Positions 1 to 25,359 of a stretch of DNA of 43,834 nt are shown here, piece by piece; the first letter of the stretch is position 1, and each line of letters opens with the position of its first letter. A model generated the notes under the pieces. That model saw only the letters and a program-made list of their open reading frames with translations, was not told where the DNA came from and ran no database searches. Location of the stretch: UHGV virus genome UHGV-0214218; one strand, written 5' to 3'. Position numbers and translations under genes: made by a program. Source of the stretch: a virus.

Positions 1-49
1 ATTTTTTTTGAGTTCATTATTGCTGCATACAGATAGCAGAGGTAAACAC

Positions 50-292
50 ATGAAAAGCATCGCAGAACAGATAAGAGAAATGGAACAGACGAAGCTGTCA
101 GAGCTGATTGATTATGTTGGAGGGCAATCACAACTGGCAAGGTTTCTTGGTGTGTCAAAACAGGCTGTTAATCAGTGGGTATCAAGAGGAAGAATTAGCG
201 CTACAGCAGCAATTGATGCCGAGAAACTTACTGGCGGAGTTTTCAGAAAGGAAGATTTAAGGCCGGCTGTCACAAAATGGATTGTTAAATAA
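50..292 (+). CDS. Cro/YdaS-like helix-turn-helix DNA-binding protein
   Basis: Uses the frame of track ORF 8-292. The first ATG is at 50 and is preceded by GAGG. It carries the HTH signature QSQLARFLGVSKQAVNQWVS and is followed by a hairpin terminator. Confidence 0.6.
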   Translation: MKSIAEQIREMEQTKLSELIDYVGGQSQLARFLGVSKQAVNQWVSRGRISATAAIDAEKLTGGVFRKEDLRPAVTKWIVK

Positions 293-295
293 TAA

Positions 296-320
296 AGCCC
301 GCGTTTGCGGGCTTTTTGTT
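296..320. terminator. rho-independent terminator (AGCCCGC-GTTT-GCGGGCT followed by TTTTT), bidirectional between converging genes
   Basis: 7-bp GC stem with a 4-nt loop and a T-run. There is an A-run on the other side. Confidence 0.7.
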
Positions 321-714
321 ATGCTCCTTTTGAGCTTAAACTATCTTTCTCACGCCTTCCGCTATACTCTTTGCTTACATCCTCATACAAAACACCAAAC
401 GCCTTACAGAAATTAAATAGTGCGTCGCCCGCAAAAACTTCGCTTGGATGCCATCTTCCTGAATGTCTTGCAACATCCCTGTATGAAGCTGTCACTATGC
501 CGACATTGTTTTTGTATTTTATCCTGCAAAACAAAACGTCATCATCAATGCAGACTCCCATATTGCAACGGAACACAGGGAACTTCCAGTAGTAAACCTC
601 CATCAGGTGTTTACCTGTCATCAGAGAGATTGCGTTGTGATGCCCACCTTCAGGTTCTTCAGATTCAAAGTAGTCAAACAACCCTTTCATTACAATGAAC
701 TTGTAGTTAATCAT
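319..714 (-). CDS. hypothetical protein (131 aa), distal gene of the primase operon
   Basis: Six-frame ORF. Its start overlaps the primase stop in an ATGA configuration at 711-714. Confidence 0.45.
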   Translation of the reverse strand: MINYKFIVMKGLFDYFESEEPEGGHHNAISLMTGKHLMEVYYWKFPVFRCNMGVCIDDDVLFCRIKYKNNVGIVTASYRDVARHSGRWHPSEVFAGDALFNFCKAFGVLYEDVSKEYSGRREKDSLSSKGA

Positions 715-3044
715 ATTTCAACCTCATCATTTGTTAATTTGTAAATAACTACAGCATTACTTGTTCTTTTTGCGCTTTCATCTTTCTCAATAACACCATC
801 TTCAATAAGTTTCTCTATGCATCTTTTCACATCATCGCGTTTATACCCACCTTCTTTTGCAACGCCTCTAACTATTGCGGTCTTAGTCATTCCGCGCTTA
901 ACATATTCTTTAACCATGGAGAAAATACCCTCAATTCGTTCTTCCATAGCTTTAGACTTCGCTCCGGAGATACTGTCAGCACGCATCATCAGGTCGCTTG
1001 TTGATTTAATCGTTAATGCTACCGCATATCTCAGGTGCTCCATGGTTATGACGCCAGTATCGCACGCGAGAATGCCAGCAATCTTTGCCACCTTCACAGC
1101 GCATCTGTTTATCAATGGGTGATAACCAGTACCGTTTTCTACATGCTTTCTTGCAACGGTTTTAATCCATGAGAAGAACTCCTTAGCGAGCTGAGAAACC
1201 TCAGGCGTAGCTTTTATAATCCGTCTTTCTTTTTTACTGATGATTGAGTCTGTCCAGTTTTTGTGCCCTGCCGTTCCACCATTTATTATCGTTTTTATGG
1301 TCAGTTGCATATCCATAGGGAGATCACAGTAATTGACGTTTTCGTTTTCGTCAGCAATCTCCTGTAACTCCTGCATAATCATTGCACGACCCATAAGACC
1401 TGACTTAATGTTTTCTTCAGTGATAAGTCGCTTAAACTGATCATCAGTAGACACACCAAAGATTGAAAAAAATGGATTCCTTATAGCTCCGTCAATTCTG
1501 TTTATCACATCATCAAACTGACACTTAATGTCAACGGGGTCTGCCTGTATTTCATTTTCCTCAATAGCAATCAACAGCATAGCCTTTCTCTTTTCGAAAG
1601 ACTTAATGAAATCCTCAGTAACACGCTGGTCACAATAAAGAACTTCTGACGTGTAAGCCTCCATGATGGCACCAGCGGTTGCCATGTTGTACTCGCTTAC
1701 TTTCTGACCAACAACACTACCAAGTTTTATGCCAATCTCATCCATGATGATATTAAACATCTGGTTAGCGCAAAGACCTTCATATATCGCACGCTCTGAA
1801 CGTATCTTGCCAGCAACAGTCTTACTTAATCCTGAGCAATCAATTATCTTTTGTAGCGCTGCAAGAACATCACCTTTACCTGAACCAGAGCCTGCAATGC
1901 CAACAGCAAACAGGTTTGGCAAAGCCTTCCTGTTTGTAAGGTAAATATCAGATGACGCCCCGCAAATCATGGATGCGGCGTACAATGCGGCAAGTGCTGC
2001 AATATTCTCTCGCTTCTCTGCACAGTTCTTATTAATCCAGGCGGCAAGGCGACCAACAAACCCAGGGGGATAACGGACATCAACGCTTTTGTACTCTACA
2101 GGGCATTCACCAACACCCATTGCCATTTCTCGCTCGAAAGACTCAAGTTTTTCAATTTCCTCTGGCGTAGCCTCAAAAGTTACTTGCCTTACCCACCCAC
2201 CCTCTTGCGCCAGATAAACAAGAGTGCCTGCGGTTATCTTGTCGTCAATTCCATCTTTACCAAAGGAATGCCATTTGGCATCCATCTCCTCTGGCCGGTA
2301 TTTGCTGAACTGTGATGACCAGTTATTCCACAGGTCAAACCCATTACCGTCAGTTGCTTCATGGATAGCCATCCCCACATTTATCCACGGATTGTACTCA
2401 TCACCATCATTGATGTATTTGAGCATGTCTTCCATTTCAGCAATGCTGTAATTTTTACTATCAAGCGTGAAAACCTCATCTTCCGATCGCTCAGGACGAA
2501 GAAGAAGTTCAATAAGTTGATATGGAGCTTCAGTTATCTCAGAAGGAGAACCATGCTCGGCTTCATAAAAATTACCTGACTTATGGAAAGAGCCGCAGCC
2601 AATAACGAAACCAGATGATTTAAAGTCAATGCCATTAAATCTCCTGTCATGAGATCGCAGCTTTATTCCTTCAGGAAGTTTGTAATAGATATGGCGACCA
2701 CCGCCACCAGTCTTTACCGTAAAACCAGCTTCATCAGCAAGTTCAACATCTAACGCATCACAAAGCGCATCGTATCCATCATTACCACCATTTCTTGGGT
2801 CAATATCAACAACAAGATACCCATTAACAAGAACGCCGAATGACTGTAACTTGCCATACTTAGCCATGCTTTCAATCTGCTCATCATCCCACTGGACACC
2901 AAGCTGCCAGTTACTCATAATCGGATGCTTTCCCGCAGCCTTACATTCCTGATCGCCACAAGTACAGTTGCGCTCCTCATCCATTGGATGAATGTCGATA
3001 ATAGGGAAACCGCATTTGCGATAATCTTCATAACCAATCATCAC
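711..3044 (-). CDS. replicative primase-helicase: N-terminal bifunctional primase-polymerase (DIDPRNGG), D5-N-like region, P4/SF3-type helicase with Walker A GIAGSGSGKGD
   Basis: 777-aa ORF with motifs read directly from the translation. Gene order and length are typical of a phage primase/helicase. Confidence 0.85.
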   Translation of the reverse strand: MMIGYEDYRKCGFPIIDIHPMDEERNCTCGDQECKAAGKHPIMSNWQLGVQWDDEQIESMAKYGKLQSFGVLVNGYLVVDIDPRNGGNDGYDALCDALDVELADEAGFTVKTGGGGRHIYYKLPEGIKLRSHDRRFNGIDFKSSGFVIGCGSFHKSGNFYEAEHGSPSEITEAPYQLIELLLRPERSEDEVFTLDSKNYSIAEMEDMLKYINDGDEYNPWINVGMAIHEATDGNGFDLWNNWSSQFSKYRPEEMDAKWHSFGKDGIDDKITAGTLVYLAQEGGWVRQVTFEATPEEIEKLESFEREMAMGVGECPVEYKSVDVRYPPGFVGRLAAWINKNCAEKRENIAALAALYAASMICGASSDIYLTNRKALPNLFAVGIAGSGSGKGDVLAALQKIIDCSGLSKTVAGKIRSERAIYEGLCANQMFNIIMDEIGIKLGSVVGQKVSEYNMATAGAIMEAYTSEVLYCDQRVTEDFIKSFEKRKAMLLIAIEENEIQADPVDIKCQFDDVINRIDGAIRNPFFSIFGVSTDDQFKRLITEENIKSGLMGRAMIMQELQEIADENENVNYCDLPMDMQLTIKTIINGGTAGHKNWTDSIISKKERRIIKATPEVSQLAKEFFSWIKTVARKHVENGTGYHPLINRCAVKVAKIAGILACDTGVITMEHLRYAVALTIKSTSDLMMRADSISGAKSKAMEERIEGIFSMVKEYVKRGMTKTAIVRGVAKEGGYKRDDVKRCIEKLIEDGVIEKDESAKRTSNAVVIYKLTNDEVEI

Positions 3045-3256
3045 TTAATTCTCCGAACAGATACTTCACCAAACCCAGCCTTTCTTGTTACAAAAACCCA
3101 TGAGTTATCTTTCGCAACACAACACAGACTTGCCCTGAATTTTTCAATACTGCTATTGGCGCGGAAATCATCAACAACAAAAAAACGCACATCACCAACA
3201 GACATACCATTAACAAACTCATACGCCTCAGCCATCGCACTACCAAAACGATACAT
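3041..3256 (-). CDS. hypothetical small protein, first gene of the primase operon
   Basis: 71-aa ORF overlapping the primase start by ATGA. Confidence 0.35.
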   Translation of the reverse strand: MYRFGSAMAEAYEFVNGMSVGDVRFFVVDDFRANSSIEKFRASLCCVAKDNSWVFVTRKAGFGEVSVRRIK

Positions 3257-3347
3257 AACAACCCCCTCTCCAATAATCTAAACTCAATATACCAACATTC
3301 CTATAATCAGGCAACACACTCAATACACACAAAACAAATGAACAGCG

Positions 3348-3376
3348 TTGACAATAAAAAACAAAAGGTGTATCAA
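3348..3376 (+). promoter_or_regulatory. sigma70-like promoter TTGACA-17-TATCAA reading into the iteron region
   Basis: Perfect -35 TTGACA at 3348-3353 with a 17-bp spacer. The -10 is weak. Confidence 0.3.
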
Positions 3377-3421
3377 TACAGGTGCGTTGTTTAAGTGGTT
3401 GTTTTGAAAGAAAAAGAATCC

Positions 3422-3631
3422 GATTTGCCAGCTATTTGCCAGCTATTTGCCATGTATAAGTTACTGATTTTTAACTATTTTACCTAATTCCCTATTTGAC
3501 ACGGCTCTAAAAGACATTTGATGACCGGGAATAAAAATTAGAAGCCACCCGTGGCAAATAGGGCAAATAGAAAATAGAAAAAAACAAAAGCAAAAACAGA
3601 AACTTAGAAACAAACAAGTCTGGCAAATAAG
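3422..3631. repeat. iteron-like cluster: three tandem GCTATTTGCCA units (period 11, 3422-3452) plus a degenerate copy at 3491, facing three TGGCAAATAG units in the opposite orientation (3551-3631) and four AAAATAGA repeats
   Basis: Repeats read directly from the sequence. The region is non-coding in all frames and AT-rich, and lies next to the primase operon. Confidence 0.55.
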
Positions 3632-3673
3632 AAGAAAATAGAGAAAATAGAAAACATAAAATAAATCACAAAT

Positions 3674-3702
3674 AACCAGCTTAACTGCTGGTTTTCGTTT
3701 TT
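3674..3702 (+). terminator. rho-independent terminator (AACCAGC-TTAACT-GCTGGTT followed by TTCGTTTTT)
   Basis: 7-bp stem with a 6-nt loop and a T-rich tail, inside the non-coding origin-like region. Confidence 0.5.
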
Positions 3703-3858
3703 CTGCAGCGTAAGGTATTAATATCTATAATAAATATAAAGAAGATCTTAATATACTTTATAGAGGTAATAAACAAAGGTTACTATTAGTAATACATGTA
3801 ACTATATATGTGAGCTAGCGTTAACTAACATTTAGTCGTGTTTTTTCTTTCTCTGTGT

Positions 3859-3887
3859 GTTGACGTAGAATCATCATTGATGTAGAT
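3859..3887 (+). promoter_or_regulatory. early promoter TTGACG-17-TAGATT (contains the 12-mer TTGACGTAGAAT)
   Basis: -35 at 3859-3864 and -10 at 3882-3887. A GAGGGTGAAGAG RBS and an ATG at 3919 follow. Confidence 0.5.
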
Positions 3888-3918
3888 TGAACCCATCGAA
3901 ACAAACGAGGGTGAAGAG

Positions 3919-4065
3919 ATGAGAATCAAAGACCGTGAAGAATTTGAAGATGCACAGGCTATGGCACGAATTGCAGTTGAGCGCAAAAACAACAGCATTC
4001 CTGCCGAAGCATTCTGGAATGCAGCAATGCAGGCTTTAATCTCGGCGTATGGGTTAAGCAAATGA
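3919..4065 (+). CDS. small early protein (48 aa)
   Basis: ATG preceded by GAGGGTGAAGAG. Below the ORF-track cutoff. Its stop overlaps the next ATG. Confidence 0.45.
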   Translation: MRIKDREEFEDAQAMARIAVERKNNSIPAEAFWNAAMQALISAYGLSK

Positions 4066-4157
4066 CAGGCGCAACATTAGAACTCATAGCCAGTATGGTT
4101 ATCGTAGCATTCATCATTATCGCAGTGGCAGTTTCTAAATCAGGGTATAAGGAGTAA
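4062..4157 (+). CDS. small hydrophobic peptide (31 aa, one TM helix)
   Basis: ATGA-type overlap with the preceding ORF. Hydrophobic core VIVAFIIIAVAV. Confidence 0.35.
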   Translation: MTGATLELIASMVIVAFIIIAVAVSKSGYKE

Positions 4158-4159
4158 CA

Positions 4160-4240
4160 ATGAGCAACTGGCATAACGAACACATCATGCAGTGGTATCG
4201 CCGTCGCATTAAGGCAATCATTAACTCTTATGAGAAATAA
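4160..4240 (+). CDS. small basic peptide (26 aa)
   Basis: GGAG RBS 6 nt upstream of the ATG at 4160. Confidence 0.3.
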   Translation: MSNWHNEHIMQWYRRRIKAIINSYEK

Positions 4241-4243
4241 CAA

Positions 4244-4426
4244 ATGGCAAAGACAATCTATCGTCGCGAGAAGCTGGAACCAGAACTCGGTCCCGTTGGC
4301 GCGCAAAACTTTATGAGCAAGCAGGCACGCAATGCAATTGAATCTATCCGCGTAAATCGCGTTGTGCGCGTGTTTAATGGTGAAGGTAAGCGCAGAGTAA
4401 TGGATGAGCTGATTATCGTGTTCTGA
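4244..4426 (+). CDS. hypothetical early protein (60 aa)
   Basis: Six-frame ORF in the early + strand cluster. Confidence 0.45.
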   Translation: MAKTIYRREKLEPELGPVGAQNFMSKQARNAIESIRVNRVVRVFNGEGKRRVMDELIIVF

Positions 4427-4461
4427 CCTCGATTCGGCGCTCTTATTTTAATAGTGATGAT

Positions 4462-5632: not shown

Positions 5633-6088
5633 ATGTCAGATAAACCAATCGGGCGACCGACAGAATACAAACCTGAGTACGACGAGCAGGCGTACAACTA
5701 TTGCCTGCTTGGTGCTACCGATAAACAGCTTGCTACTTTCTTTGATGTGAGCGAACAAACAATAAACGCATGGAAACACAAACATCCGTCGTTTCTTGAG
5801 TCCTTAAGGCGAGGAAAGGAAATTGCAGACGCAAGGGTTGCTCAAGCATTATTCAGTAGGGCTACCGGGTATGAGCACCCAGAAGACGATATCAAGGCGG
5901 TTAATGGTGAAATAGTAATCACACCAACAATAAAAAGGTACCCTCCAGACCCCACATCAATGATTTTCTGGTTAAAGAACAGGCAACCAAAACTGTGGAG
6001 AGATAAGCCTGAATCTGAAGGTGCAGATGGCGATGGGGCAATCCATAAGGTGCAGATAGAGGTGATTAGTGCAGATAAGAGTAAGTAA
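5633..6088 (+). CDS. terS: terminase small subunit
   Basis: 151 aa. N-terminal HTH-like region PIGRPTEYKPEY...LLGATDKQLATFFDVSEQTINAWK. Sits immediately upstream of terL and has a GAGGTG RBS. Confidence 0.7.
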   Translation: MSDKPIGRPTEYKPEYDEQAYNYCLLGATDKQLATFFDVSEQTINAWKHKHPSFLESLRRGKEIADARVAQALFSRATGYEHPEDDIKAVNGEIVITPTIKRYPPDPTSMIFWLKNRQPKLWRDKPESEGADGDGAIHKVQIEVISADKSK

Positions 6089-6133: not shown

Positions 6134-6646
6134 ATGCATGAAGATTATTTTAGTTACGCCAATGGTAAGCTGTATTGGGTTTTACGCAATGAGGAATCAT
6201 TCAAAACCAAAAGAGGATACTCAGTACACAAAAATAAATATGCTGGTAAGGAGGCTGGCAACATTGGAAGGAATGGTTACAGGTATGTGCGCGTTTATGG
6301 GAAGCTGCTACTTGCGCACCGCATTATATGGGAGATGTTTAACGGACCAATCCCGGAAGGTATGGAGGTCGATCATATAGATACAAACCCATCAAATAAC
6401 GACATATCAAACCTGAGATTGGCAACGTCATCTAACAATAAATGGAATATGAATATACCATCACATAATACTTCCGGATTTAAGGGTGTGAGCCTTTTCA
6501 AGGCTACCGGGAAGTACGAGGCTTACATAAAATTTAACGGCAGGAAGATTCACCTTGGTTTTTTTGATACGCCGGAACTTGCACATGAGGCGTATAAGTT
6601 AGCGGCTGATAAGATGTTCATGGAGTTTAGCAATCATGGAAATTAA
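6134..6646 (+). CDS. HNH homing endonuclease with AP2 DNA-binding domain, inserted between terS and terL
   Basis: HNH_3-like core LAHRIIWEMFNGPIPEGMEVDHIDTNPSNNDISNLRLAT plus an AP2-like GFKGVS...YEAYIKFNGRKIHLGFFDTPELAHEAY. Overlaps the terL start by 11 nt. Confidence 0.85.
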   Translation: MHEDYFSYANGKLYWVLRNEESFKTKRGYSVHKNKYAGKEAGNIGRNGYRYVRVYGKLLLAHRIIWEMFNGPIPEGMEVDHIDTNPSNNDISNLRLATSSNNKWNMNIPSHNTSGFKGVSLFKATGKYEAYIKFNGRKIHLGFFDTPELAHEAYKLAADKMFMEFSNHGN

Positions 6647-7943
6647 GATGACACTAACCGAGCCTCAGGCAAGGTTCATGAACCTCAATTGTAAATTCCC
6701 TGCTTTTATCGCTGGCTTTGGTACTGGGAAGTCAGAGACTATGTGTAACTCTGCATTGCTTGATAGTCTCGAAGGTGGTTCTGACTCACTTATAGCCATG
6801 TATCAGCCGACTTATGATCTTGTGCGCCTTATTCTTGCTCCCCGCATGGAAGAGAAGTTGATCGACTGGGGTATTCGATATAAATATAACAAGGCAGAGA
6901 ACATAATCTACACGTCATCAGGGCAGATGGGGGATTTTGTTCTCAGGACTCTGGATAATCCGGCGCGAATAGTTGGTTATGAGTCGTTCCGTGCAAAGAT
7001 TGACGAAATTGACACACTTAAGCAAGAACACGCATCTGAGGCGTGGATAAAAATAATCGCCCGTAACCGTCAGCGCCCGAGAACATATACTGACACGTCA
7101 GGCAAGCCTATGAATACCGTTGGCATATTCTCAACCCCAGAGGGGTTCCGGTTTGTTTATGACAGATGGGTAAAGAACAAAAAGGATGGGTACGAAATGG
7201 TGCAGGCAAGCACTATGAGCAACCCTTTCCTGCCTGATGACTACGTTCAGTCACTGCGCGATAGCTATCCACCGCAACTCATTGAAGCCTATCTGCAGGG
7301 TGAGTTTGTAAACCTTACGTCTGGCACTGTTTATCCTCAATTCGACAGGAATCTTAATCACAGCGACGAGGAATACAAGACTGGTGAACCAGCCCATGTC
7401 GGTATGGACTTCAACGTGGGCAAGATGTCTGCGATTATTCATGTTGAAAGGGATGGCGACCCGATCGCAGTTGGCGAGATACTTGGTGCTTACGATACTC
7501 CAGAAATGATTCGGTTAATCAAGCAGCGTTTATGGCGTGAGACATCAAATGGTGAGTTTGAGAAGCTGTGTGAAATTTACGTTTATCCTGATGCGTCAGG
7601 TGGCAGCCGCAAGACCGTGAACGCTGGCACGTCAGATATAGCTTTGTTGAGAGATGCTGGCTTTCATGTTATGGCTGACAGTAAGAACCCACCAGTCAGG
7701 GACCGCATCAACTCTGTTAACGCGATGTTCTGCAATGCTGAAGGAGAGCGCAGATACAAGGTAAACACAAAGCTGTGTCCAGTCTACACTGAGGCGAGAG
7801 AGCAGCAGATTTACAACAAGCAGGGCGAGCCAGACAAAACTCACGATAAGGACCACCCGAACGATGCGGCTGATTATTACATTTATAATAAGTTCCCGCT
7901 CGTACGACCAATGGCAGCAATGCTAATCCGGCGCAGGCGATAA
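6636..7943 (+). CDS. terL: terminase large subunit
   Basis: 435 aa. Walker A FIAGFGTGKSE, then a C-terminal nuclease-like region with conserved acidic residues. Confidence 0.9.
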   Translation: MEIKMTLTEPQARFMNLNCKFPAFIAGFGTGKSETMCNSALLDSLEGGSDSLIAMYQPTYDLVRLILAPRMEEKLIDWGIRYKYNKAENIIYTSSGQMGDFVLRTLDNPARIVGYESFRAKIDEIDTLKQEHASEAWIKIIARNRQRPRTYTDTSGKPMNTVGIFSTPEGFRFVYDRWVKNKKDGYEMVQASTMSNPFLPDDYVQSLRDSYPPQLIEAYLQGEFVNLTSGTVYPQFDRNLNHSDEEYKTGEPAHVGMDFNVGKMSAIIHVERDGDPIAVGEILGAYDTPEMIRLIKQRLWRETSNGEFEKLCEIYVYPDASGGSRKTVNAGTSDIALLRDAGFHVMADSKNPPVRDRINSVNAMFCNAEGERRYKVNTKLCPVYTEAREQQIYNKQGEPDKTHDKDHPNDAADYYIYNKFPLVRPMAAMLIRRRR

Positions 7944-23834: not shown

Positions 23835-24550
23835 CCTAAAATCCTATTTTTTGCTATTTCAAAATACACATCATCTTTTTCAATGCCGATGAACCTACGC
23901 CCTGTGTTTATGCACGCCACGCCAGTTGTGCCGCTGCCCATAGTGAAATCGAGAACCGTTTCACCCTCATTGGTGTAGGTCTTGATTAGGTACTCCATGA
24001 GGGTGACTGGTTTTTGTGTCGGGCGAACTGTTTTCCCTTCGCTTGGAAACCTTTGAATTGTCTTTGGGTAGTTTGTGTGAGTTTGAAGGTACTCTGTTTT
24101 CCTCACCCCGCCGCCATTGTTATCTGTAACCTTTGAGCCTTGCTTTGTTATTTTGTTGCACTCGATAAGACCTTGAGGATAGTAAGCTGGAGAACTCGCA
24201 GAAAAAACGATTACATCTTCATGTATTTTTAAAGGCTGTTTTTTAGCGAGCATCTGGTTTGCGAATCTGGTTTTCTCCCAAACCCAACAATACTTAAACA
24301 TCTTCATGTTGCTTGCAATGAGTGTTGTAGTAAACGGCTGGCTTGCAGTCATCACAATAGCGCCGTTCGGCTTTATGATGCGCTTCAATTGTTCCCACAT
24401 TGGCTCAAGAGGGATGATGGAGTCCCATTTACAGGCGGTTGTACCATAAGGTGGGTCGGTAAGCACCAGATCAACGCTACCACCTGGAATAGACTTCATA
24501 ACTTCCAGACAATCACCATGAATTAATTGCACACCTTTATTTATAATCAT
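23831..24550 (-). CDS. DNA methyltransferase, beta-class amino-MTase (motif IV DPPY precedes motif I FTMGSGTT); N6-adenine (Dam-like) or N4-cytosine
   Basis: DLVLTDPPYG comes before DFTMGSGTTGVA, the circular permutation typical of the beta class. Confidence 0.85.
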   Translation of the reverse strand: MIINKGVQLIHGDCLEVMKSIPGGSVDLVLTDPPYGTTACKWDSIIPLEPMWEQLKRIIKPNGAIVMTASQPFTTTLIASNMKMFKYCWVWEKTRFANQMLAKKQPLKIHEDVIVFSASSPAYYPQGLIECNKITKQGSKVTDNNGGGVRKTEYLQTHTNYPKTIQRFPSEGKTVRPTQKPVTLMEYLIKTYTNEGETVLDFTMGSGTTGVACINTGRRFIGIEKDDVYFEIAKNRILG

Positions 24551-25359
24551 TACATCTTCTCCAGAATTGCCATAACCTCGTGAATGTCAGCAACAGGAAT
24601 CTGGATAAATTCCTCATCCTCTGCCACCACATGACCAGCGGGAAGAATCACATGGTCTGCCGGCTTCAATAACTCAATCAAACGGTCTACTGGCTTAATC
24701 TTTTTCGACTTCAGCACCTTTGCCGTGACCTTGTCCTTGCCCTGCGCCTTCGCTTCTTCGACTGCCTCGTCGATAACTTTTACCGCATCATCACCATGCT
24801 CACGCGTTACTGCTACGGCATTTGCATAGCTGATTTGCCCGGCGCTGATTCGCGCTTTTACTTCCGCTGGAACGTCACCCAACGACAGATGCATCTGCAC
24901 GTCAGACACTGAACGCCCTACCTTCTTGGCGATTTCTTCATTCGTCCAGCCAAAGCCTTTCAGTCGCGTGTAAGCCTTTGCGCGCTCAAACGGGTCAAGT
25001 TGCTTGCCCTGACTTGATGACACCATGAATGCGATTTTATCCGCCTCGTCGCCAGTGAAATCTTTGCACTCAATGCGAACGATTGGTGCTCCGCGCTCAA
25101 TGGCACGCAATGCGCCGAGATAGCGGTGCTGACCATCAAGAATGCGGATTCCTTTCTCGTCAGGAATAACTGTTAATGCTGGTAATGGCTGACCTGATTC
25201 CCAGCACTGCGCGAAATATTCCACATGCTGCTCATCTGCTTCACGGATGTTATATCCCGGCTCCAGATAGATTTGTTCCACTGGTACGATATAGGTTTTG
25301 TTAACAGCGATGCCGTTGCGCGTTTCTTTGTCTGAATAGATTTTACTGAGTGTTTTCAT
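24550..25359 (-). CDS. ParB-like nuclease domain protein
   Basis: ParB/Srx-fold N-terminal motif ILDGQHRYLGAL. Start overlaps the methyltransferase stop by ATGA. Confidence 0.7.
   Translation of the reverse strand: MKTLSKIYSDKETRNGIAVNKTYIVPVEQIYLEPGYNIREADEQHVEYFAQCWESGQPLPALTVIPDEKGIRILDGQHRYLGALRAIERGAPIVRIECKDFTGDEADKIAFMVSSSQGKQLDPFERAKAYTRLKGFGWTNEEIAKKVGRSVSDVQMHLSLGDVPAEVKARISAGQISYANAVAVTREHGDDAVKVIDEAVEEAKAQGKDKVTAKVLKSKKIKPVDRLIELLKPADHVILPAGHVVAEDEEFIQIPVADIHEVMAILEKM

Follow-up and report, generated by a model that had tools for sequence, protein, structure and literature searches.

The window analysed here is the 43,834-nucleotide virus genome UHGV-0214218. Since the Cro-like gene at its start (8-292, plus strand) and the RecA-like gene at its end adjoin each other in relatives, the window is probably all, or nearly all, of the genome of a virulent siphophage of the Sf11/Sa179lw group. 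To the right of the Cro-like gene, the minus strand carries a leftward primase operon. Its first gene is a 71-aa ORF (3041-3256), which is a homologue of Sf11 gp1 and has no Pfam match; this is followed by the gene for a 777-aa primase-helicase (711-3044), the proposed initiator of replication, downstream of which lies a 131-aa ORF (319-714, minus strand). The Pfam matches of the primase-helicase comprise Prim-Pol, PriCT-2 and DUF3987 domains; the last is listed only as a 'protein of unknown function', and we take it to be the SF3 (D5-like) helicase region. A promoter scan placed a sigma-70-like promoter (TTGCCT-17-TATATT, with TG upstream) for the primase operon at 3286-3314 on the minus strand and a conserved rightward promoter (TTGACG-17-TAGATT), which serves an operon of small genes and terminase genes, at 3860-3888 on the plus strand.

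Between these genes, the initial annotation had described about 650 bp free of ORFs, AT-rich and rich in repeats, as a candidate replication origin. The gap indeed spans 662 bp (3257-3918), from the start of the leftward 71-aa ORF to the first rightward ORF, and contains only short, unconserved ORFs of 30-50 aa. The block together with its flanks (3000-4300) is 90% identical to Escherichia phage Sa179lw (genus Buchananvirus), and of the 147 phage records that match, most begin to align only at about position 3855 and continue rightward; the promoter at 3860-3888 marks the right boundary of the replication module. The cumulative GC skew, which had been suggested as a check, does reach its global minimum in the 3001-4000 bin, but this minimum coincides with a switch in gene orientation and is therefore not independent evidence for an origin.

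Elsewhere in the window, the terminase module region (5633-6088, 6134-6646 and 6636-7943) holds a module that is common to the window and Sa179lw and absent from Sf11, YX3973 and gmqsjt-1. It consists of a 151-aa protein and a 435-aa Terminase_6 large subunit, and in the window an ORF for an HNH/AP2 endonuclease is inserted between these two genes. A ParB/KorB-type helix-turn-helix protein, found here in a virulent phage, is encoded at 24550-25359 (minus strand).

Repeats and flanking elements of the block

No other part of the window has a short-repeat cluster as strong as that of the block. Allowing at most one mismatch, the repeat TGGCAAATAG has seven matches in the window, and all seven lie inside 210 bp (3421-3630), four of them pointing rightward and three leftward; under uniform placement, such clustering has a probability of about 1e-13. 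Similarly, TATTTGCCA occurs four times in the 43.8-kb window, every time within 3433-3629. The three tandem 11-bp units reported earlier are found at 3420-3452 (plus strand) as CCGATTTGCCA-GCTATTTGCCA-GCTATTTGCCA, two of them perfect and one imperfect, and the reported degenerate copy is CCTATTTGACA at 3491-3501 (plus strand), which forms the inner rightward site and the left arm of a central inverted pair. The three units in the opposite orientation were confirmed as well: TGGCAAATAG at 3552 and GGGCAAATAG at 3561, which together with a decayed copy, TAGAAAATAG (3568-3577, two mismatches), make up the leftward group at 3552-3577, and TGGCAAATAA, the outer leftward iteron, at 3621-3630 (all on the minus strand). 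The four rightward-pointing sites (3421-3501) thus face the three leftward-pointing ones (3552-3630), giving two opposed sets around a centre, with a central spacer at 3505-3548. Only one count had to be corrected: instead of four AAAATAGA repeats, the block holds three (3571, 3635 and 3644). This motif is not significantly enriched on its own, and its copies look like decayed AAATAG halves of the main repeat.

The right half of the repeat-bearing segment (3550-3673) is A-rich on the top strand, with 76 A and 15 T in 124 nt. Short-repeat scans of the whole window detected no second repeat cluster elsewhere in the genome, and the two matches to the DnaA box TTWTNCACA in the window are both away from the block. 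A DnaA-dependent origin was rejected, as no DnaA box lies in or beside the A+T-rich region described below.

The repeats are framed by two transcription signals, both of which had been pointed out in the initial annotation. On the left, the hexamer TTGACA (3348-3353) is followed by a 17-nt spacer and TATCAA, and we read this sequence as a rightward promoter-like element (3348-3376, plus strand); the strict promoter scan missed it because of the A at position 6 of the -10 hexamer. On the right, an intrinsic terminator (3674-3702, plus strand) with a 7-bp stem, a 6-nt loop and a T run was called on both strands. Its stem is invariant in eight relatives, in which the loop alone varies, and it forms the conserved right edge of the segment, which we refer to as the cassette (3348-3702).

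Beyond the terminator lies the A+T-rich stretch (3715-3830), whose A+T content was given as over 75 percent and is in fact 77.6%. No 116-bp segment of the window is richer in A+T than 3718-3833 (78%), which is located beside the repeats, not between them. The element as a whole (3716-3833) begins with an imperfect palindrome of about 47 bp (3716-3762; TATTAATATCTATAATAAATATAAAGAAGATCTTAATATACTTTATA), which is followed by the palindromic GTTACTATTAGTAA (to 3795). The palindrome at 3716-3762 is near-invariant in eight relatives that carry completely different cassettes, and its conservation exceeds that of the flanking genes.

Cassettes of related phages

Among the phages with this primase, only Sa179lw has the same cassette as the window (92% identity). 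An exact search of IMG/VR for the tandem iteron likewise returned Sa179lw only, a comparison of the block with plasmids and E. coli genomes revealed no homologue (one chance A+T-rich match), and the only usable new cassette locus from a metagenome scan for the primase was L024. In the remaining phages with this primase, the same spot is occupied by unalignable sequence, each phage having its own short repeat in both orientations: TGGCATTTAG in YX3973; TCGGGAAGC in Sf11, L006 and L016; CGGGAAGC in L007, L024 and ECO95; CGGGAAATAG in gmqsjt-1 and ECO111; GACTTTAG in Klebsiella phage 6991, L010, L017 and L026; and GACTTTCG in L008 and L030. Grouping by global alignment against shuffled controls gave three cassette families with no similarity between them, represented by the window and YX3973 (type A), by Sf11, L007 and gmqsjt-1 (type B) and by 6991 and L008 (type C). 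The repeat is TGGCA(AA/TT)TAG in family A, CGGGAAGC or CGGGAAATAG in family B, and GACTTTAG or GACTTTCG in family C.

The architecture of the cassette recurs in families A and B, where TTGAC[AG]-N17-TAnnnn is present on the left and the same terminator follows 265-301 nt later (five cassette types). Counted from the -35 hexamer, the inner opposed sites of all A and B cassettes fall at about +133 to +146 and +196 to +218, and the A bias of the top strand in the 3' half is seen in every cassette type. Past the terminator, the sequence is again common to the relatives. In the skateviruses, a DnaB-like helicase module replaces the prim-pol gene at the same place, and the layout there is iterons, 140 bp of A+T-rich DNA and more iterons, with the repeat GGGATAA. 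From the presence of these iterons at the same place, we infer that this position probably holds the replication-specificity DNA of the whole group.

Several minor differences among the cassettes and their surroundings were also recorded. Homopolymers of 7-10 G or C are found near the cassette centre in gmqsjt-1, Sf11-like phages and Klebsiella phage 6991 (L003 3925-3985, L016/L006 and L037 42990-43050) and are absent from the window and YX3973; the G10 and C8 runs of gmqsjt-1 could pair with each other. Instead of the palindromic element, the type C phages have a different one, which is also conserved and contains AGTAAC...GTTAC. In the interval between primase and cassette, YX3973 (L002) has two leftward ORFs of 138 aa and 82 aa (3042-3458 and 3455-3703) that are unannotated in its record; gmqsjt-1 and the L007-type phages have ORFs at the same place, and the window has the 71-aa ORF only. 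In Klebsiella phage 6991, the annotated hypothetical gene 6991_0070 (L037 42891-43169) sits on the iteron block, with six copies of GACTTTAG, and is probably not a real gene.

The near-constant distance between the promoter-like element and the terminator in five cassettes argues that RNA polymerase crosses the iterons, and a transcript of about 320 nt is thus plausible from the sequence. Of the two roles that had been offered for it, activation of the origin or a small RNA, a free-standing small regulatory RNA is the weaker. The latter idea, in its full form, holds that the block encodes a non-coding RNA of about 320 nt (3384-3702) with the fold of a long hairpin, that this RNA is the functional product (a regulator, decoy or primer) and that the repeats are its stems. 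Besides the frame of promoter-like element and terminator, such a gene would account for a predicted RNA fold better than that of shuffled sequences (z = -3.2), the nesting of three helices, two or three both-side changes between the window and YX3973 outside the core repeats, and the A-rich transcribed-sense strand of every cassette. However, the fold predicted for the opposite strand is no worse (z = -3.8), as expected for inverted repeats at the DNA level, and the pairing scheme is not conserved, the Sf11-type cassettes giving two separate hairpins. There is no sequence similarity between the cassette families, and the type C and skatevirus blocks have iterons without the terminator. In YX3973, moreover, TT has become AA in the inner and outer helices together, although independent stems would not have to change in step. 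The -10 hexamers are weak, most of them ending in a base other than the conserved T, no Rfam family was found (a search with 3200-3950 gave only sub-threshold microRNA-type hairpin matches), and no complementary target is present in the genome. Overall, an RNA gene is a quite unlikely explanation of the block. The both-side changes outside the core repeats do suggest, weakly and from three sequences, that the long hairpin is of importance in its RNA or DNA form.

Co-variation of the repeats with the primase C-terminus

A single-sequence AlphaFold model of the last 142 residues of the primase predicts the order helix-helix-helix-strand-wing-strand, with a pLDDT of about 85-90 in this part and a mean of 71, and its third helix comprises residues 736-748. 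The top Foldseek matches of this model are all winged-helix DNA binders (MarR, Fur, replication terminator protein and Orc1/Cdc6), with weak E-values of 0.01-0.09; a sequence search of the primase against solved structures found no relative. The variable residues of the primase fall in the predicted recognition helix and wing. Based on the model and on co-segregation, this part corresponds to residues 720-770, encoded at 735-887 on the minus strand, with the predicted recognition helix at about 736-748. Three versions of residues 720-770 exist and match the three cassette families, type C having the third version.

Next, five complete genomes were scanned for sites at which the window, Sa179lw and YX3973 are identical and both Sf11 and gmqsjt-1 differ from them. 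Of the 139 such sites, 26 fall in 150 bp at 753-902, the densest cluster, which encodes primase residues of about 715-765; the next region has eight. Judged from these alignments, no alignable stretch of the genome other than the primase patch co-segregates with the repeat type. The same pattern is seen when the patch is set against the rest of the gene. Compared with the window, gmqsjt-1 differs at 14 of the 51 residues in 720-770 and at 13 of 725 elsewhere (p=5e-11; nucleotide identity 73% in the patch versus 95%), and Sf11 at 13 of 51 and 41 of 725 (p=1e-5; 76% versus 91%). In contrast, YX3973 differs at none of the 51 patch residues and at 8 of 725 elsewhere (100% versus 97%), and Sa179lw at 1 of 51 and 45 of 725 (95% versus 89%). 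In phages of the window's family, the patch is thus better preserved than the remainder of the gene, and in those of another family the gene is very similar except for a patch that has been replaced. We propose that residues 720-770 may be the determinant of repeat specificity. The co-variation covers only three or four module types, and these modules are physically linked.

None of the other candidate proteins follows the repeats in this way. The Cro-like protein, which had been proposed for footprinting, does not co-vary with them, being 98% identical to that of Sf11, whose repeats are unrelated. The same comparison led us to reject the 71-aa ORF (87% identical to Sf11 gp1) and the ParB/KorB-like protein (99% identical to Sf11 gp33) as repeat binders, and the iteron block is, on this evidence, not the binding site of the ParB/KorB-type protein. 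The 131-aa ORF was rejected for want of co-variation with the repeats.

These observations bear on the idea that the repeats are not an origin and are instead operators for a regulator of the divergent primase and rightward operons. The block does lie between divergent promoters, one repeat of the Sf11-type cassettes falls in the spacer of the cassette promoter, and Cro-like and ParB/KorB-like proteins are encoded in the genome. On the other hand, most sites lie downstream of the cassette promoter, by 70-290 bp, and are separated from the other two promoters by 100-300 bp; the candidate regulators and the 71-aa ORF are conserved in Sf11, whose repeats are unrelated, as just described; and the sole co-varying segment is in the primase. 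We therefore regard operators as very unlikely. The iteron in the Sf11-type promoter spacer suggests that the initiator may control this promoter.

We likewise weighed whether the block could be a pac or cos site at which the small terminase recognises DNA for packaging. In its favour, the block heads an operon with terminase genes, the window and Sa179lw share both the cassette and a distinct terminase module (5633-6088 plus 6636-7943), and the GenBank record of Sf11 breaks inside its cassette. Nevertheless, the small-terminase-like proteins of YX3973 and gmqsjt-1 are near-identical and the repeat families of these phages differ, for which reason these proteins were rejected as repeat binders; conversely, YX3973 combines window-like repeats with a different terminase, and the block is more than 2 kb from the terminase genes. 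The Sf11 record (L019, MF158038.1) has the same ~330 bp at both ends (1-330 and 46125-46454), with the break in a poly-A run inside the cassette. Such an overlap breaking at a homopolymer is typical of an assembly artefact, and we rejected the break as a physical genome end, since it is probably an assembly overlap and not a terminal repeat. A packaging site is, in sum, extremely improbable.

Although the winged helix follows the cassette families, it is not the whole specificity story, because sub-variants of the repeats occur with identical winged helices. The window and YX3973 differ at none of 285 C-terminal primase residues, yet every repeat copy has TT in the one and AA in the other, at conserved positions, and the type C cassettes have A and C sub-variants of the repeat with the same winged helix. 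No protein change was found that fits the TT/AA split between the window and YX3973. The sole candidate cluster, at 321-394 in the 3' end of the 131-aa ORF, was rejected as the TT/AA determinant, for it groups the window with Sf11. This stretch is a mosaic patch that sets the window, Sa179lw and Sf11 against YX3973 and gmqsjt-1, a grouping that the rest of the module does not show. To account for the sub-variants, either the positions concerned are tolerated by the winged helix and something else, such as arm pairing or gene conversion, homogenises the copies, or there is a second reader of the repeats.

A candidate origin of replication

Taken together, the co-variation of the iterons with the predicted winged-helix tip of the adjacent primase-helicase supports the initial suggestion of an origin. 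We consider it probable (roughly 0.7) that the block at 3348-3855 is the replication origin of the phage, used by a self-loading primase/SF3-helicase initiator. This reading is further supported by the match between the opposed repeats, the A+T-rich element and the initiator gene alongside, and the origins of self-loading SF3 helicases (PMC9371898).

The closest parallels are the staphylococcal pathogenicity islands and related elements (SaPI/PICI), in which the C-terminal winged helix of Rep or Pri-Rep reads iterons on both sides of the origin in opposite directions (PMC9371898). As proposed here, an SF3 helicase whose C-terminal winged helix reads short iterons serves as the initiator (with a fused primase in SaPI5), six to twelve iterons in opposed sets lie next to the initiator gene, and the specificity differs between related elements (PMC9371898). 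There are, however, differences: the SaPI origin is located just downstream of rep, whereas the block lies upstream of the operon; the A+T-rich region of SaPI is between the iteron sets, whereas the strongest one here is outside the iterons, beyond the terminator; and SaPI iterons are 5-6 bp long, compared with 10-11 bp here. Comparison of the primase with solved structures found no sequence homology to the SaPI Rep proteins.

Phage P4 offers a second parallel, as its ori and crr contain type I iterons, short repeats in both orientations as seen here. P4 needs crr, a second and distant repeat cluster, which has no counterpart in this genome. Like the present protein, P4 alpha joins a primase, an SF3 helicase and a C-terminal winged-helix origin binder in one polypeptide, but its primase domain is of the DnaG type and not a Prim-Pol. 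The domain logic of P4 alpha, whose origin-binding winged helix is PDB 1KA8, and of pRN1 ORF904 fits the present primase-helicase (PMC2777425). 1KA8 was absent among the 50 fold matches listed in a PDB search with the model of the primase C-terminus. ORF904 shares with the present protein a prim-pol, an SF3 helicase and a C-terminal winged helix that is proposed to recognise a gene-adjacent origin (PMC2777425, PMC4234260). It is an archaeal plasmid protein whose cognate site was never identified, whereas here a candidate site is evident and co-varies with the domain.

In iteron plasmids and in the ori/O-protein systems of lambdoid phages, the iterons and the DNA-binding part of the initiator swap together and an A+T-rich region lies alongside, as in the phages studied here. 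Initiators of these two kinds bring in a helicase that is a separate protein or belongs to the host, and DnaA boxes are common in their origins; in contrast, the present block has no DnaA box and the initiator includes the helicase. The lambda origin is activated by transcription nearby.

In this reading, the candidate origin would consist of three pieces. The first is the variable cassette (3348-3702), with 7-8 copies of the 10-11-bp iteron TGGCAAATAG in two opposed sets; the winged helix at the C-terminus of the adjacent prim-pol/SF3-helicase would bind these iterons, and the opposed sets would allow two helicase rings to load themselves facing each other. The second is the conserved intrinsic terminator that closes the cassette, and the third is the near-invariant A+T-rich palindromic element (3716-3833), which may act as a melting, loading or priming site. 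The DNA would open either in the central spacer or in this invariant element, after which the prim-pol domain would prime synthesis. According to the twin-domain model, divergent transcription leaves the region between the promoters negatively supercoiled. Transcription from the promoters of the primase operon (3314-3286) and of the rightward operon (3860) could therefore help strand opening here, to which the ~320-nt transcript across the iterons may also contribute.

The A+T-rich element at 3716-3833 is accordingly named only as a candidate unwinding or helicase-loading/priming site. Its near-invariance is more than a plain unwinding element needs and appears to count against the origin reading in this form; the palindrome at 3716-3762 may be where the conserved part of the primase protein specifically loads or primes.

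A further possibility, which we regard as unlikely, is that the origin is a swappable transcribed cassette with fixed promoter and terminator joints, whose A-rich hairpin RNA of about 320 nt is active in initiation or in competition between co-infecting relatives. Unrelated iteron sets may then be exchanged together with the 150-bp patch of the primase gene 2.5 kb away, and the iteron RNA could serve as an R-loop, a primer or a decoy for the winged helix of the initiator. The concerted TT-to-AA and A-to-C changes would in this case reflect a second repeat reader, which might be hairpin pairing, in RNA or in single-stranded DNA, or a different region of the protein.

The self-loading origin proposed above is of a kind already well known, and comparative evidence supports its presence in a phage group where it is unannotated: no origin is annotated in the Sf11-, Sa179lw- and Skate-like virulent enterobacterial siphophages, several of which are under development for biocontrol and genome reduction. 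The seszw genome-reduction paper (PMC9825161) contains neither 'intergenic' nor 'non-coding', and its sole 'origin of replication' is that of the plasmid. The block offers a concrete candidate origin and a testable pairing of 10-bp repeats with a winged-helix patch of about 50 residues, which would tell genome engineers what must not be deleted or mismatched. It would also explain a recombination hotspot in these genomes, and the cassette families make up a natural series of initiator/iteron specificity variants from which it may be learned how self-loading SF3 helicases read origins. In the skateviruses, direct GGGATAA repeats lie beside the operon of the DnaB-like helicase at 4130-4430 in Seszw_1 (L022) and at 4140-4420 in VSt472 (L023), and, judging from its layout, this region is likely the origin of the skatevirus replication module, also unannotated.
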